DNA of 64,000 nt from assembly GCA_000146045.2 (NCBI GenBank), contig BK006939.2:416001-480000 (forward strand), in the 5' to 3' direction. This stretch comes from TPA_inf: Saccharomyces. Taxonomy: Eukaryota. The notes under the pieces were generated by a model. The model saw nothing but the letters and a program-made list of their open reading frames with translations. It did not search any database and was not told where the DNA came from. How positions within the stretch are numbered: the first letter of the stretch is position 1; each line of letters starts with the position of its first letter. The position numbers were made by a program, and so were the translations under genes. Below, piece after piece: positions 41,806 through 53,685 of this stretch.

Positions 41806-44223
41806 TCAAAAAATTCTTTCGTAAAATAAAACATATGCACTGGGTGTGATAAATTCAGTACTAAACGTTATAGGACGATAAAGCGAGTCATCGAAAAAAT
41901 ACCAACCTTTTTTTGGTCCCTTATAAACGTATGAAGTATAGTGTCCCCCATACAAACTCCCCGAATGACATGCAACCCCATACAGTCTGTATCTAAATGG
42001 TGGTACTTGGCCCCTGGTAGGAATGTCCTCATTAACAATAGCTTCATGATTAAAATCTCTCGCCCAATATGGTGTAAGATCTAAGGAGTAAGGATATTGG
42101 ACAAACACATTATTCTTATTCATTTGATTGTCAAATCGTTTCAAATTAATAATTAGTTTCTTAGGCAATCTAGTAATCTTCAGTTGTTTAGTGGAAGGCT
42201 GCTTTTTTAAGCATTTAGGACATGACCATTGTTCATCGACACCTAACCTTTCGCATTTGGTGAATTCCCGGAAACAGTCTAATATGTTACAAGTTTTAAC
42301 GCGTGGGACAGGAACAGAAAGAACAGAGAATGTTTGGTAAGTTGTGGAGGTATGTTCACAAACTTGACATTGTAGCCTAGATGCGTACTGTCCTTGGAAA
42401 AGGTCAATTATCGCACTGAAGTCGGTAAGCAAAAATCTTTCCCACTCGAGAGCACTAGCTTTGCGTATGGACATTTTTTCTCTCATTCGTTCTTCCTCAT
42501 CTGATAACTGTTTAAGATGCTTTTTGCTGCCGTTTTGGTTCAAATCCTCGTGCAAGCCATCAAGCAAAAATTGACAAAATTCTTGACAATCTTGCTGCAT
42601 TGAATCACTATACATGGGGTTGATATGGCCGCAAATTTTTTTAAACTGAATAGTCTGAACTGGTATCGTTCTTACGTTAGGAGGTGTGAATGCACCGTGT
42701 CTGTGCATATTATTGACCAAGATGGCGAAATTTTTAGCTAGCAACCCCTTAGAACCTCTTGAACTATCAAAATTAATAAAATTCAGATATGTGTTATCCA
42801 AAAACATTCGAACCAAATCGTGTGTTCCCACCAAACATTGAAGTATACAGTTCATATAACAACAGTTACCTATATTTTCCAATCCTACTATAAGATCTAG
42901 ATCAAGCACTTGTGAGTTGTTTAGGATGGTCTGCCTCGACGAAGACAAGTTCTGTTGTGGTAAAGGCGGAATACGTGGCGAGAATACATTCGATGCAGGG
43001 GGCAAATAGGCATGGGCTTGTGCAGCGCGGATATCTGGCGATATTCTTTCCACAGTGTTTGCTTTATTTTGAATGGTCGAGGGTGTATTGAGTTTTGAGA
43101 GAGTGGTTGGTGGATGTGGACTAAATTTTTGAACGGTGGGAGAATTTCTGTTGGGGCTTGGTTGCGGTATAATGGGCAAATCTGAATAGTATAAGGGTAA
43201 TTGAGGCCTTTGCACCGTTGTTAGCAAAGGCTGCGTATTCATGGATACCATCGGCATACTCTTATCTTTATTTGGAGATAGAGATTTCTGATTGAACAAG
43301 CCTGTTGGGACTTGCGGACTACCAAAAGCTGGCGTTGAAGACGAGGATGTAAGATGCGCTGTTTCACTGACAGATGATTGATACGCCCCACCTAATTTAA
43401 CCCAGTTTGAGAACCCATTTTCCAAAATGAGTATTTTCGTCCCACTCAGCGGTTTAATTACTGAATTTTGGGAAAGAATCTTCGCAAGGATGCGAGTTTG
43501 CCTTTGCTGGAAATTATTATGCAATTGAGTGTCAGTATATAAAATAATGAACTTGAACTTGTCTCGATTTGAAAAGAAAGTGATATCTGAGTGCGGCGAA
43601 GTGATCAAAGAGACACTTTCAATTTGTTGGTCTGTAAAAGAATCCTTAAATGAGGCAGGATCGATGCATATAATGTTTTTGCATTTGATATGGGCCCTAA
43701 CGAATTCAGACCTGGGCCGTACATCGATAAGCAAGAGAGCGTCACCATGAAAATGCAACATTGAACTTAATTTTCCAGGCTCTATAGTTTGCAACTGTAT
43801 AAATTTAGGGTAATTTTCAATGACATTTCGAATCCGCTCAATATTTGGGTCATTATGCAAAAGCTGGATTCTCTCCCCGTACAAATTTCTAACATTCTGG
43901 TCCTTGTTGCTCGAAAATTCCTTTAGTCTTGGTAGAGTATCCTCCAAGAGCGTATATACGATCATGTAATATAAAAAAGCTGTTTCATTCAATCGGAGAA
44001 ACCCCTTTGACAACCGGTTTGCATCTTCTTTAGGGGCCTGCATGGTTATATCCTGGCATGCGTCCACATAACTAGACCATATTTCTGCGCATTCTTGGAG
44101 CAAAGGCAGACACTCTTGTGGCACGTCGTCATCATCAAGAAACTTCTGAACTAAATGCCTAAGCCTGCCGAACCGCTCTTTAGCAGATTCGACAACCTCA
44201 CTTAAGGCTTGTTCTGAGCCCAT
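41806..44223 (-). CDS. UBP5: Ubiquitin-specific protease (USP/UCH family, Doa4 paralog), 805 aa
   Basis: The first ATG (CAT at 44221-44223) gives MGSEQALSEVV.... It has a rhodanese-like domain, a Cys box GLENIGNCCYMNCILQCL and a His box YRLYGVACHSGSLYGGHYTSYV. The track start at 44508 is a GTG. Confidence 0.85.
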   Translation of the reverse strand: MGSEQALSEVVESAKERFGRLRHLVQKFLDDDDVPQECLPLLQECAEIWSSYVDACQDITMQAPKEDANRLSKGFLRLNETAFLYYMIVYTLLEDTLPRLKEFSSNKDQNVRNLYGERIQLLHNDPNIERIRNVIENYPKFIQLQTIEPGKLSSMLHFHGDALLLIDVRPRSEFVRAHIKCKNIICIDPASFKDSFTDQQIESVSLITSPHSDITFFSNRDKFKFIILYTDTQLHNNFQQRQTRILAKILSQNSVIKPLSGTKILILENGFSNWVKLGGAYQSSVSETAHLTSSSSTPAFGSPQVPTGLFNQKSLSPNKDKSMPMVSMNTQPLLTTVQRPQLPLYYSDLPIIPQPSPNRNSPTVQKFSPHPPTTLSKLNTPSTIQNKANTVERISPDIRAAQAHAYLPPASNVFSPRIPPLPQQNLSSSRQTILNNSQVLDLDLIVGLENIGNCCYMNCILQCLVGTHDLVRMFLDNTYLNFINFDSSRGSKGLLAKNFAILVNNMHRHGAFTPPNVRTIPVQTIQFKKICGHINPMYSDSMQQDCQEFCQFLLDGLHEDLNQNGSKKHLKQLSDEEERMREKMSIRKASALEWERFLLTDFSAIIDLFQGQYASRLQCQVCEHTSTTYQTFSVLSVPVPRVKTCNILDCFREFTKCERLGVDEQWSCPKCLKKQPSTKQLKITRLPKKLIINLKRFDNQMNKNNVFVQYPYSLDLTPYWARDFNHEAIVNEDIPTRGQVPPFRYRLYGVACHSGSLYGGHYTSYVYKGPKKGWYFFDDSLYRPITFSTEFITPSAYVLFYERIF

Positions 44224-49302: not shown

Positions 49303-50025
49303 ATGGCCGATGAGGAACGTTTAAAGGAGTTTAAAGAGGCAAACAAGATAGTGTTTGATCCAAATACCAGACAAGTATGGGAAAACCAGAATCGAGATGG
49401 TACAAAACCAGCAACTACTTTCCAGAGTGAAGAGGACATAAAAAGAGCTGCCCCAGAATCTGAAAAAGACACCTCCGCCACATCAGGTATTGTTCCAACA
49501 CTACAAAACATTGTGGCAACTGTGACTTTGGGGTGCAGGTTAGATCTGAAAACAGTTGCGCTACATGCCCGTAATGCAGAATATAACCCCAAGCGTTTTG
49601 CTGCTGTCATCATGCGTATTAGAGAGCCAAAAACTACAGCTTTAATTTTTGCCTCAGGGAAAATGGTTGTTACCGGTGCAAAAAGTGAGGATGACTCAAA
49701 GCTGGCCAGTAGAAAATATGCAAGAATTATCCAAAAAATCGGGTTTGCTGCTAAATTCACAGACTTCAAAATACAAAATATTGTCGGTTCGTGTGACGTT
49801 AAATTCCCTATACGTCTAGAAGGGTTAGCATTCAGTCATGGTACTTTCTCCTCCTATGAGCCAGAATTGTTTCCTGGTTTGATCTATAGAATGGTGAAGC
49901 CGAAAATTGTGTTGTTAATTTTTGTTTCAGGAAAGATTGTTCTTACTGGTGCAAAGCAAAGGGAAGAAATTTACCAAGCTTTTGAAGCTATATACCCTGT
50001 GCTAAGTGAATTTAGAAAAATGTGA
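49303..50025 (+). CDS. SPT15: TATA-binding protein, 240 aa
   Basis: The translation matches yeast TBP, including the two direct repeats (...[51 protein letters not shown]... and ...[37 protein letters not shown]). Confidence 0.97.
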
Positions 50026-50207: not shown

Positions 50208-51470
50208 TCATAGCATATCTGGTGGATCGTCTCTATTAAGCGCCAGCGAGGTGTTTGCCTCTGCATTTTTCAGCAAAGCAAGCTCCCTTTCCAGCTTGAA
50301 TCTATGTTCACGCTCATCCGACAATTCTTTTTCATACTTTCTTTGTGTACTCGTAAGCACTTTTTTAAACTCACTTGTCATTATTGAAAGTGAACGTGAT
50401 CCAGAACCGCTTGTGGGGCTTCCTACAGAGGAAGGTGAACTTGGATCCCAAGTCACCGGCGAACTCGCTGGTGATGACATGCCGAAATTATGTCTGCTTG
50501 AATTCAGCTTGTTGTTGGCTTTTTCAAGTTCTTTATTTTCCTGCTCCAATTCGTGTAATTTCTTTTCAGTTTTACTCAAATTCGAGTGGTTGTTTAATAA
50601 CTTATCTTGTAATTCTCTGTTAGTCCGCGTTAGCTTCTCGATATCTTGTACATATTCGGCACGGTCATTCTCGAATTGCTTAGTCAAGAAATTGTGTGCC
50701 AGTTGCAAATCACTAAATGCCGTTTCTAGTTCTTCTAATTTTTTAGAGGAGTCTTCCTCTTGAATTGCAGCGGCGTTAGGCGAAATAGGTGGTGATGACG
50801 TATTTTTTTCTAGACTGACGCAGGTATCCAAGATAGAATTTATCCCATTTTTCAAGAACTTCACAGGGTCATCTAATGGTATTGGCTTGATATCAATGCC
50901 TTTCTGAATGGAGTTTGACATCAAGAAGGACGTTAATTCTTGAAGTATTTCATTTTTATCGTCATCAGCTTTGTCAGTATGGTAAGCACCCTTGTTAAAT
51001 TTATCTGTGCCACCCATATTAGTGGAAGACCTCGCTCTTTTAGAATTTGGGAAACTGTTGTTGTTTTCCTTCGTAAGCTGGTCTATCCCTGTAGTGTTAA
51101 TGGATTCAAGGATCCTCAGCATCATTTCATACCAATCCGCAGACTTCGGCTGCAGCTTCAGCAACTCATTGAGTGTGGGATTTAGATCATCAGAGTTCAA
51201 GTGCTCTTTTTGAACGTAGTATAGGGCGAACTCAGACACTAGCTTTTTGTCAAGGTCTATTTCTGACTCGTCATTTTTACTTCTATACAGAAGATAGTCA
51301 AAATAGTCAATGGAAGTGTATGGTCTACTATTGTGATGCGGATGTGACGGATTTTGGGAGAGAAGGTACTGTTTCAATTCATCGTATTTCAATGGATACT
51401 CTTCGTATCGTTCTGCACTAAAAAGCAAAGGGTTCGCTCTTCTCGAGAGCTCTAGATCAAATTTATGCAT
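50208..51470 (-). CDS. PEA2: Polarisome coiled-coil protein, 420 aa
   Basis: The first ATG (CAT at 51468-51470) gives MHKFDLELSRRANPLLFSAERYEEYPLKYDELKQYLL... and a coiled-coil C-terminal half. The track start at 51488 is a GTG. Confidence 0.85.
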   Translation of the reverse strand: MHKFDLELSRRANPLLFSAERYEEYPLKYDELKQYLLSQNPSHPHHNSRPYTSIDYFDYLLYRSKNDESEIDLDKKLVSEFALYYVQKEHLNSDDLNPTLNELLKLQPKSADWYEMMLRILESINTTGIDQLTKENNNSFPNSKRARSSTNMGGTDKFNKGAYHTDKADDDKNEILQELTSFLMSNSIQKGIDIKPIPLDDPVKFLKNGINSILDTCVSLEKNTSSPPISPNAAAIQEEDSSKKLEELETAFSDLQLAHNFLTKQFENDRAEYVQDIEKLTRTNRELQDKLLNNHSNLSKTEKKLHELEQENKELEKANNKLNSSRHNFGMSSPASSPVTWDPSSPSSVGSPTSGSGSRSLSIMTSEFKKVLTSTQRKYEKELSDEREHRFKLERELALLKNAEANTSLALNRDDPPDML

Positions 51471-51989
51471 ATGAAACGTGATATCCACCGTTATTCTCCC
51501 TCTCGAACACAGGACTTCGATAGTATCTTTTGTAATCTGTTCAGCTCAACTATTTGTTACCATACCATCATCATCACTTTACACATACTCATCATGTGTT
51601 TATTGACGCGAGCGCGACTTGCAAGAAAAGGCATAATTGTGGCGAGGTAATGAAAAATTTTTGACGTTTCCCTCATTCATTCATACATAACATTTTGGGA
51701 TTTTGGAACAAGGCGAGAGGAGAACGTCTTTGGACCACTGTAATAGTACACAATGCAAGATATTTTAAGTTTATGCTAAAAATCCAGAAGTGACGCTTCA
51801 TCAACGGTGTCAATATGGACCGAATTTTAGTGTATCTTCAATTGTAACCGTGAGGAGTAGACTCTTTGAATACGGGGGAAGAAGAAATATCATATTCAAA
51901 GCTAATTCATTGAAATTAGTGCTTGTCTCATCTAGCCTTTAGTGCTTAATCTCTGGAGGAGCACATATGGGGTTAAAGCCATGCCGGGA

Positions 51990-52100
51990 CTGGGGGCCCC
52001 TATCGGGGCTCGAACCCGAATCCCGCGAGTATTTATTTGAAGGTCCGGGACGCAAGTTACCTAATCTGGTTAATTGATATCCCATTTAGGCGATGACGTT
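51990..52100 (-). other. GC-rich tRNA-like element with a consensus-quality Pol III B box (GGGTTCGAGCCCC) and a 5-bp T-arm-like stem. It is not a complete tRNA.
   Basis: The minus strand reads ...ATTAACCAGATTAGGTAACTTGCGTCCCGGACCTTCAAATAAATACTCGCGGGATTCGGGTTCGAGCCCCGATAGGGGCCCCCA. TCGGG/CCCGA flank a 7-nt TTCGAGC loop, and there is a GCCCC-GATA-GGGGC hairpin. No acceptor-stem partner or canonical anticodon arm could be found. Confidence 0.3.
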
Positions 52101-52104
52101 CCTT

Positions 52105-52116
52105 CCCCTCACCCCT
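52105..52116 (+). promoter_or_regulatory. Two tandem stress-response elements (CCCCT) in the SPI1 promoter
   Basis: CCTTCCCCTCACCCCTCGG has CCCCT at 52105-52109 and 52112-52116, about 255-265 bp upstream of the SPI1 ATG. SPI1 is a known Msn2/4-dependent stress gene. Confidence 0.5.
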
Positions 52117-52369
52117 CGGCTTGTTAGAAGATCTATTGTTATAGCCTCCTCTGGAAGAATTTATGCCAGATGAAGAAAAAAACTTCTCGAAGTTCCCAGA
52201 TGCCCAAATGAGGGCTTTCCATCCCTGTTAGCTGGAAAAGTGTAAGTATATCTATATAAAAAGTCGGCCTACTTTTGCCAGGTTCGTCTTTCACTTGCAC
52301 TCTCTTGATCTTACTTTCTACTCAAAAAGAATCCAATACACAAAAATAAAATCAGTACTATTACTAATA

Positions 52370-52816
52370 ATGTTGTCTAACGCTAAGCTCCTTCTATCAT
52401 TGGCCATGGCCTCTACGGCTCTCGGATTGGTATCTAATTCTAGTTCCTCTGTAATCGTGGTACCATCAAGCGATGCTACTATTGCCGGTAACGATACAGC
52501 CACGCCAGCACCAGAGCCATCATCCGCCGCTCCAATATTCTACAACTCGACTGCTACTGCAACACAGTACGAAGTTGTCAGTGAATTCACTACTTACTGC
52601 CCAGAACCAACGACTTTCGTAACGAATGGCGCTACATTCACTGTTACTGCCCCAACTACGTTAACAATTACCAACTGTCCTTGCACTATCGAGAAGCCTA
52701 CTTCAGAAACATCGGTTTCTTCTACACATGATGTGGAGACAAATTCTAATGCTGCTAACGCAAGAGCAATCCCAGGAGCCCTAGGTTTGGCTGGTGCAGT
52801 TATGATGCTTTTATGA
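52370..52816 (+). CDS. SPI1: GPI-anchored Ser/Thr-rich cell wall protein, 148 aa
   Basis: The first ATG at 52370 gives [19 protein letters not shown] with a signal peptide. The body is Ser/Thr/Ala-rich and ends in a hydrophobic GPI signal (...[13 protein letters not shown]). Confidence 0.85.
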
Positions 52817-53395: not shown

Positions 53396-53456
53396 GAAAT
53401 TCACATTCCTTCTACAAGGTATTTGTTTCTTAAATGTTCATCTCCAAGAAATAATT

Positions 53457-53530
53457 GGTTTCGTGGTCTAGTCGGTTATGGCATCTGCTTAACACGCAGA
53501 ACGTCCCCAGTTCGATCCTGGGCGAAATCA
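53457..53530 (+). tRNA. tV(AAC)E2: tRNA-Val (anticodon AAC), identical in sequence to the copy at 22700
   Basis: The 74-nt sequence GGTTTCGTGGTCTAGTCGGTTATGGCATCTGCTTAACACGCAGAACGTCCCCAGTTCGATCCTGGGCGAAATCA is the same as at 22700. It is followed by a T-run. Confidence 0.95.
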
Positions 53531-53685
53531 TTTTTTAAATATGCCAAGCATAAAGTGTAACTCTGTTTCTCTGTCTGTCTCTATTTCTTTTTTAAAATCG
53601 TGCTCACTATCGTATTGTATTGTATTGTATTGTATTATTGCTATATTATTTTTTATGTATTTTGTCTATAATACCACCCCCCGTC

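Follow-up and report, generated by a model that had tools for sequence, protein, structure and literature searches.

What is the GC-rich, tRNA-like element that lies upstream of the stress-induced gene SPI1 on chromosome V of Saccharomyces cerevisiae: a tRNA gene, the relic of one, or a binding site at which TFIIIC sits by itself? The element is found in a 64,000-nucleotide stretch (positions 416,001 to 480,000 of the chromosome V sequence BK006939.2; hereafter the window, the coordinates of which are used throughout). In this window, PEA2 (minus strand, ATG at 51470) and SPI1 (52371-52816, plus strand) diverge from an intergene of about 900 bp that carries the candidate site, a 23-mer located about 350 bp 5' of the SPI1 ATG and distal to the activating region of that gene. 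On the chromosome, the 23-mer corresponds to approximately 467,995-468,017, if SPI1 starts at 468,370, as we presume. A preliminary description of this DNA had proposed a tRNA relic, an extra-TFIIIC (ETC)-like site or an unannotated RNA polymerase III (Pol III) transcript, and had called a role as a TFIIIC-bound boundary or insulator conceivable. Of the three readings, the results reported here point to the second: the element is probably not a tRNA gene but a TFIIIC site of the ETC type that is missing from the published lists. More specifically, we assign a probability of roughly 0.72 to the reading that it is a DNA-level, ETC-type binding site for the tauB module of TFIIIC, possibly one that separates the SPI1 activating region from PEA2 as a boundary. 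The site is not among ETC1-8 (Moqtaderi & Struhl 2004), ETC9 (YGR033C) or ETC10 (MPD1-YOR289W), none of which is on chromosome V, and the number of yeast ETC sites is still given as eight in a review of 2025 (PMC12409998).

The candidate site has the following parts, the last two of which, including a stress response element (STRE)-type motif, were read directly from the sequence:

51996..52018, minus strand: 23-bp candidate ETC-type extended B box CGGGTTCGAGCCCCGATAGGGGC, defined by an ETC matrix and by conservation in six species
52006..52016, minus strand: B box proper GGTTCGAGCCC, tRNA positions 52-62, with one mismatch to GGTTCGANTCC
51996..52005, minus strand: 3' extension CGATAGGGGC, with the three ETC-invariant bases present
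52003..52019, minus strand: T-arm-like inverted repeat TCGGG-TTCGAGC-CCCGA, with a 7-nt loop
51997..52001, plus strand: third STRE-type CCCCT (AGGGG on the minus strand), overlapping the ETC extension

The minus strand around the site reads ...ATTAACCAGATTAGGTAACTTGCGTCCCGGACCTTCAAATAAATACTCGCGGGATTCGGGTTCGAGCCCCGATAGGGGCCCCCAGTCCCGG..., with GGGTTCGAGCCCC at 52017..52005. The local features named in the preliminary description are present. The B box GGTTCGAGCCC at 52016..52006 matches GGTTCGANTCC at 10 of 11 positions, the single mismatch being T60->C, and the critical C56 is retained. The 5-bp T-stem TCGGG/CCCGA is formed by the inverted repeat at 52019..52003, the hairpin sequence GCCCC-GATA-GGGGC occupies 52009..51996, and two CCCCT STREs (52105-52109 and 52112-52116) lie about 260 bp upstream of the SPI1 ATG at 52371. 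In tRNA numbering, the 23-mer spans positions 50-72 (T arm plus 3' acceptor strand), of which the extension makes up positions 63-72. By itself, a B-box match with at most one mismatch is unremarkable and near chance level, as the window contains seven such matches (2.3 expected), three of which belong to real tRNA genes. The candidate site is the sole B-box match between PEA2 and the tRNA-Val gene tV(AAC)E2 (53456-53531, plus strand), a real tRNA gene at a distance of 1.45 kb.

What stands above chance is the B box combined with its 3' flank, not the B box alone. The 23-mers of the eight ETC sites are printed in Hiraga et al. (2012; Table 1, PMC3395662), and these were turned to B-box sense and aligned on TTCGA to build a log-odds matrix. 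In each of the eight, the bases at +10, +13 and +14 after TTCGA are G, G and C, respectively, and the site, CGGG-TTCGA-GCCCCGATAGGGGC, carries these three invariant bases as well. Among the 127,956 positions scanned in the window, the site ranks first with 18.7 bits, a score for which about 0.05 matches are expected. The five real tRNA genes of the window score lower (12.2-15.4 bits), and the leave-one-out scores of the real ETC sites range from 10.0 to 21.9 bits, which includes the value of the site. When only the extension is scored, the site has 9.42 bits, attained by 19 of the 127,956 positions and higher than every leave-one-out ETC extension score (0.9-8.7). Moreover, the ETC-invariant pattern GWTCRANNC-N6-G-NN-GC, which extends the minimal B-box consensus GWTCRANNC (PMC4228148), occurs twice in the window against 0.19 expected. 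The closest known relatives are ETC2 (PPM2-ARG8) and ETC7 (YOR228C-WTM2) (PMC3395662). The extension CGATAGGGGC is identical to that of ETC2 (CGATAGGAGC) at 9 of 10 positions and to that of ETC7 (CGAACGGGGC) at 8 of 10. As in ETC1-8 generally, the B box is followed by a 10-base 3' extension ending in G..GC (..TTCGAATCCCGATAGGAGC in ETC2, ..TTCGAACCCCGAACGGGGC in ETC7 and ..TTCGAGCCCCGATAGGGGC at the site).

Conservation was assessed in orthologous intergenes reached via PEA2 orthologues in six species, namely S. cerevisiae, S. paradoxus-like, S. mikatae, S. kudriavzevii-like, S. arboricola and S. uvarum. In the S. paradoxus-like assembly PEA2 is 90% identical; the label S. kudriavzevii-like is presumed, the PEA2 of that assembly being 80-82% identical to those of both S. 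cerevisiae and S. mikatae. The intergene is colinear at 891-924 bp in all six species, which indicates that no long terminal repeat (LTR) has been inserted and agrees with the earlier remark that no LTR lies nearby. Across these species, 17 of the 23 columns of the 23-mer are invariant, compared with 26% of the S. cerevisiae positions in the intergene as a whole. The preliminary description had treated loss of the B box in sister species as a possible refutation; the core is kept in all six, with GGTTCGA invariant and GWTCRANNC retained throughout. At least four of the approximately five substitutions in the B-box 11-mer fall at the degenerate, consensus-free positions 59 and 60 (GC, GG, AA, GG, GA and GC across the six species), and only one substitution affects a base that the consensus specifies, namely C62->A in the S. 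kudriavzevii-like assembly. Such a pattern would be expected if selection acted on the B box itself. The site is also the top matrix score of the orthologous locus in S. paradoxus-like (16.1 bits), S. mikatae (19.4 bits), S. arboricola (17.5 bits) and S. uvarum (14.3 bits). It lies at the PEA2-side edge of a conserved block of about 160 bp (52150..51991), beyond which conservation falls to background toward PEA2. An Xbp1-type CTCGA on the plus strand was considered for the same bases and rejected, because S. mikatae has TTCGA there and keeps the B-box reading.

Outside these six species, no comparable site was found upstream of PEA2 in Naumovozyma castellii, Nakaseomyces bracarensis or Torulaspora globosa. 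SPI1 is not a neighbour of PEA2 in N. castellii and T. globosa. The T. globosa locus has a B-box-like CGATTCGAACCTC (3818, plus strand) in the short intergene that the PEA2 orthologue shares with a metallophosphatase gene, 183 bp upstream of the former. The top five matrix matches of that locus all score higher, and this one may be a chance occurrence.

Published chromatin immunoprecipitation sequencing (ChIP-seq) of Tfc3 in S. cerevisiae, which reported 446 sites, provides evidence of a different kind (bioRxiv 10.1101/2025.01.30.635671). Table S2 of that study lists 'SPI1 YER150W' as a non-tRNA feature, with log2(ChIP/input) values of 2.44 (Sc-TFC7 strain) and 1.79 (Kl-TFC7 strain); SPI1 is not mentioned in the main text. 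In this table, a gene that merely adjoins a tRNA peak repeats the tRNA values exactly (e.g., PCL5 and tF(GAA)H1). The SPI1 value pair occurs only once, so the SPI1 peak is not the peak of tV(AAC)E2, which has its own row (3.20/0.81). For comparison, gene rows were equated with ETC sites via the listed intergenes, giving the following log2(ChIP/input) values:

SPI1 row: Sc-TFC7 2.44, Kl-TFC7 1.79
ETC6 (TFC6 row): Sc-TFC7 2.43, Kl-TFC7 1.97
ETC2 (PPM2 row): Sc-TFC7 1.31, Kl-TFC7 0.95
ETC4 (RAD2 row): Sc-TFC7 1.24, Kl-TFC7 0.36
ETC9 (TIM21 row): Sc-TFC7 3.26, Kl-TFC7 0.55
ETC10 (YOR289W row): Sc-TFC7 3.67, Kl-TFC7 1.58

The Tfc3 enrichment at SPI1 thus equals that of ETC6 and exceeds the rows equated with ETC2 and ETC4. 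Its value drops in the Kl-TFC7 strain, as at TFIIIC sites, whereas those of highly expressed RNA polymerase II (Pol II) genes rise, including PMA1 (2.06->3.01), the SPI1 paralogue SED1 (1.21->2.07) and HSP150. We infer that the ChIP summit at SPI1 is this 23-mer. The ETC-like interpretation raised in the preliminary description is therefore supported by three lines of evidence: the 3' extension, the B-box conservation in sister species and a separate Tfc3 peak assigned to SPI1.

Several points weigh against this interpretation. On an independent-base background, about 10 matches at 18.7 bits are expected genome-wide, so the sequence alone is insufficient as proof, and the ETC matrix was derived from eight sequences. 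The score is as low as 7.6 bits at the S. kudriavzevii-like locus (C62->A, G68->C), and the invariant G at +13 is lost in S. uvarum; therefore, the extended consensus is not strictly kept everywhere. As the whole block of about 160 bp is conserved, the conservation of the site may be due in part to Pol II factor sites that adjoin or overlap it, and an STRE does overlap the extension. Table S2 assigns peaks to genes without coordinates or a summit, the fragments were 150-1000 bp long, and a tRNA gene is 1.45 kb away. Finally, our literature search found no main text linking TFIIIC with PEA2 or SPI1 and none that prints the sequence; the original genome-wide surveys were outside this search, so the intergene may have been noticed earlier.

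Some of these points would also fit an ordinary Pol II promoter module, bound for example by Msn2/4 at AGGGG or by a GC-box factor. The likeness to a B box would then be coincidental, and the Tfc3 signal would be spill-over from tV(AAC)E2 or non-specific signal at an expressed gene. The conserved block is indeed full of STREs and also holds a cyclic AMP response element (CRE)-like ACGTCAT and a P-box-like site, the B-box match alone is near chance, and Table S2 includes many highly expressed Pol II genes. However, the overlapping AGGGG is broken in two of the six species, S. uvarum (AGGGA) and S. kudriavzevii-like (ACGGG), both of which have an intact B-box core, and variation falls exactly on the N positions of the B box. 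In addition, the extension contains ETC-invariant bases that no STRE model requires. The uniqueness of the SPI1 values in Table S2 argues against a tRNA-Val peak, and their fall in the Kl-TFC7 strain is opposite to the rise seen at expressed Pol II genes, including the paralogue SED1. On balance, we consider a pure Pol II module unlikely.

Concerning the relationship to tRNA genes, the element is not a tRNA gene. With default settings, ARAGORN called the five real tRNA genes of the window and none at the site. At the 90% threshold it made 13 calls in the window, again none at the site, and at the 80% threshold it made 118 calls, of which the lone call at the site is meaningless, with an 'intron' of 145 nt. 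The Rfam tRNA model (RF00005) gave no match at E <= 10 on either a 701-nt or a 101-nt query. A tRNA gene or pseudogene was rejected on the basis of ARAGORN in default and relaxed modes and of the two Rfam scans; relaxed detection and a covariance-model search, of the kinds suggested in the preliminary description, thus yielded no tRNA at the site. Its statement that no complete tRNA fold and no acceptor stem can be formed agrees with these results. The acceptor stem is absent, and the D-stem-like pairing comprises only 3 of 4 bp, as read directly from the site. The A-box/D-arm-like segment described earlier, ACCAGATTAGGTAA, exists at 52071..52058 on the minus strand, 41 nt from the B box, but its resemblance to an A box is at chance level. 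The best A-box match has 6-7 of the nine specified positions, which is the median of random 110-nt windows, and 26% of these windows reach 7. Another A-box-like sequence, TAGGTAACTGG, matches at 7 of 9 positions near tRNA spacing in five of the six species. Both ACCAGATTAGGTAA and TAGGTAACTGG were rejected as A boxes for want of a match above chance. As for a terminator, the first run of at least five T residues lies 95-365 nt downstream in the six species, at non-conserved positions.

These results bear on the possibility that the site is a decayed tRNA gene, similar to ZOD1 or YGR033C/ETC9, that recruits TFIIIB and some Pol III and is transcribed, weakly or under certain conditions, into a small minus-strand RNA, perhaps one of the tRNA-like transcripts TLT1-6. 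The perfect T-arm-like repeat, an extension equivalent to tRNA positions 63-72 and the spacing of TAGGTAACTGG would all be consistent with such an origin, and known yeast relics behave in this manner (PMC5356446). The extension may also resemble the 3' end of tRNA-Gln. In opposition are the failure of ARAGORN at default and 90% thresholds and its nonsensical call at 80%, the lack of an Rfam tRNA match even on the 101-nt query, the chance-level A-box score, the missing acceptor stem and the distant, non-conserved T runs. Furthermore, none of the three outgroup loci (N. castellii, N. bracarensis and T. globosa) has a tRNA gene at this position. We therefore see only a slim chance that a tRNA relic of this kind is present. 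In a published RNA-seq analysis of a tfc6 mutant (PMC4228148), a Crick-strand segment between YER149C and YER151C showed a 4.4-fold rise that was based on low counts, was non-significant (adjusted P = 0.80) and was not resolved in position within that interval.

A structured RNA was also considered. The Rfam mascRNA-menRNA model (RF01684) gave a weak match of 13.8 bits (E = 9.6 with the 701-nt query, E = 1.4 with the 101-nt query), formed by the stem GTCCCGG/TAGGGGC and the T arm, and a few substitutions are compatible with pairing. The element could accordingly be imagined as a tRNA-like structure, with an acceptor-type stem plus T arm, within a Pol II transcript toward PEA2 that is processed by RNase P or RNase Z. 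However, this match falls far short of the 42.5 bits set as the gathering threshold, and the Rfam family is a vertebrate one. In the six-species alignment, pairing in the T arm and acceptor-like helices does not exceed that of shuffled partners (the observed statistics are reached in 156 of 500 shuffles), and one stem pair never forms. With z = -0.77, the folding energy is unexceptional, and the T arm does not appear in the minimum-free-energy fold. A conserved RNA with a T arm and an acceptor-like stem was thus dismissed as unsupported by pair counts or folding energy; in the variant with a T arm and an anticodon-like stem, the 3' strand of that stem is broken in S. arboricola. We regard a processed RNA of the mascRNA type as highly improbable. 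The T-arm-like repeat is a by-product of the B-box sequence, and its folding as RNA is unsupported. The unannotated Pol III transcript envisaged in the preliminary description likewise finds no support, given that relaxed tRNA detection, Rfam, the A-box score, the search for a conserved terminator, covariation and folding energy were all negative.

Returning to the ETC-type reading, structural work suggests how TFIIIC could bind this DNA. Nearly all of the affinity, which is in the nanomolar range, comes from the B box, and little of it from the A box; the B box is recognised by the winged-helix domains of tau138, and K591 and N628 of tau91 make base-specific contacts downstream of it, at bases that are conserved in the eight ETC loci (PMC11724288). 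If the site were bound as in the solved tauB-DNA structure, GGTTCGA..CC would be recognised by the winged-helix domains of tau138/Tfc3 and the downstream ...G..GC in the 3' extension by tau91/Tfc6. TFIIIC would then sit at the site without a productive TFIIIB-Pol III complex, because there is no usable A box, tRNA body or terminator. Judged from these missing parts, TFIIIB and Pol III are expected to be absent.

As to function, the candidate site lies between the core of the SPI1 activating region (52093..52116) and the PEA2 promoter. Its most likely role would be the one held by other ETC sites: the bound protein would form a boundary, or block enhancer action, so that the SPI1 activating region does not drive PEA2 under stress. 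Because the site is at the PEA2-side edge of the conserved SPI1 activating block, a boundary appears to be the most economical function, and it is this position that suggests it. Alternatively, bound TFIIIC might block read-in transcription, and a role in nuclear positioning is also conceivable. The AGGGG STRE within the extension predicted to be contacted by tau91 raises one further idea, namely that TFIIIC and Msn2/4 compete for overlapping DNA and form a nutrient- or stress-sensitive switch. In growing cells, TFIIIC would shield PEA2 from the SPI1 activating region and dampen that region, and under stress its displacement or remodelling would release the activating region. Such a switch, which we think is quite unlikely, would mean that in nature a Pol III factor can gate a stress promoter of Pol II, and a physiological role for ETC sites would follow from it.

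Compared with ETC1-8, the site is similar not only in its extended B box but also in its conservation among sensu stricto species, in its location in a divergent intergene (shared by six of the eight ETC sites, although this is a tendency and not a strict criterion) and in having Tfc3 enrichment of ETC6 size nearby. It differs in that its extended consensus is weakened in two of six species, its extension is overlapped by an STRE, and it abuts a stress-responsive activating region. ETC6 is comparable as a TFIIIC site in a Pol II promoter region with a nearly equal Table S2 value (2.43, versus 2.44 for SPI1), and work on ETC6 indicates that bound TFIIIC can modulate a neighbouring Pol II gene (Kleinschmidt et al. 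2011, cited via PMC3334521 and PMC4228148). However, ETC6 is close to the TFC6 start and mediates autoregulation of a gene for a TFIIIC subunit, whereas some 350 bp and the activating region separate the candidate site from the SPI1 ATG. The relics ZOD1 (an ancient tRNA-Ile) and YGR033C/ETC9 (an ancient tRNA-Arg) are likewise non-tRNA loci that keep a tRNA-type B box (Guffanti et al. 2006, cited in PMC5356446). These relics have recognisable tRNA-family homology and TFIIIB, with or without Pol III, whereas at the candidate site neither a tRNA body nor an acceptor stem nor an A box could be detected, and no parent tRNA family was assigned. The proposed action, in which stable TFIIIC blocks communication or read-through between Pol II units, resembles that of the HMR tRNA gene and the effects of tRNA genes on Pol II neighbours (PMC4228148), but those are full, transcribed Pol III genes and the candidate site has a tauB binding site only.

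A further site with a near-ideal extended B box, conservation deep within Saccharomyces and ChIP support would enlarge the small ETC class, which consists of eight members and two later additions and the physiological role of which is still described as undetermined. At SPI1, a strongly inducible activating region faces the constitutive PEA2, so the idea of ETC insulators can be tested at a native locus with one point mutation. More generally, the ETC matrix is able to flag candidates that may have escaped the surveys of the array era. Table S2 contains several other non-tRNA Tfc3 peaks with values that differ from those of every tRNA row and are lower in the Kl-TFC7 strain, namely YHR020W (2.47/1.01), YOL106W (3.24/1.81), MFM1 (3.76/1.80), YCR015C (3.84/2.35) and HIP1 (1.58/0.27). 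These could be further unlisted TFIIIC sites, or tRNA-adjacent peaks for which the tRNA was not scored.

The rest of the intergene contains additional conserved elements, of which two flank the candidate site on the SPI1 side:

52056..52074, no strand assigned: block GTTACCTAATCTGGTTAAT, invariant in six species, which contains the A-box/D-arm-like segment of the preliminary description
52093..52116, plus strand: core of the SPI1 activating region, with CRE-like ATGACGT at 52093-52099 and STREs at 52105-52109 and 52112-52116, read in the same way as the motifs above

Block GTTACCTAATCTGGTTAAT has a P-box core at 52057-52072, the plus strand of which fits the Mcm1-type CCYWWWNNRG (CCTAATCTGG). 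It differs from TTACCNAATTNGGTAA at two positions, a match that on its own does not exceed chance. The block is probably a separate Pol II factor site of the Mcm1 P-box type, CC(N6)GG, outside the TFIIIC site; the literature search gave nothing on Mcm1 at SPI1 or PEA2. In the activating core, ACGTCAT is invariant in the six species and the two STREs are mostly conserved. Closer to SPI1, at 52126-52140, is an invariant block AACAATAGATCTTCT (minus sense) with an HMG/Rox1-like ATTGTT on the plus strand.

On the other side, about 130-150 bp upstream of the PEA2 ATG (approximately 51597-51622), there is a conserved GCAAGTCGCGCTCGCGTCAATAAACA (minus sense) with CGCG repeats and a forkhead-like ATAAACA. 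This block has 13 of 20 columns invariant in one bin and may be the core of the PEA2 promoter. A GTCCCGG direct repeat flanks the B-box region on the minus strand, at 52045-52051 and 51985-51991 (as GTCCCGGAC and AGTCCCGGCA, respectively), and both copies are largely conserved (TCCCGG). Elsewhere in the window are SPT15 (49303-50025, plus strand) and UBP3 (minus strand). Two other positions also have high ETC-matrix scores. The first is TTGGTTCAAATCCTCGTGCAAGC at 42535-42557 (plus strand, 14.3 bits), which is antisense within an open reading frame (ORF) of 900 amino acids. The second is GCAGTTCAACCCCATATGGGAGT at 47415-47393 (minus strand, 13.3 bits), in the cohesin-loader gene. As both are inside ORFs, they were dropped as coding-sequence coincidences; the second recurs in three orthologous loci, either exactly or with one or two changes.

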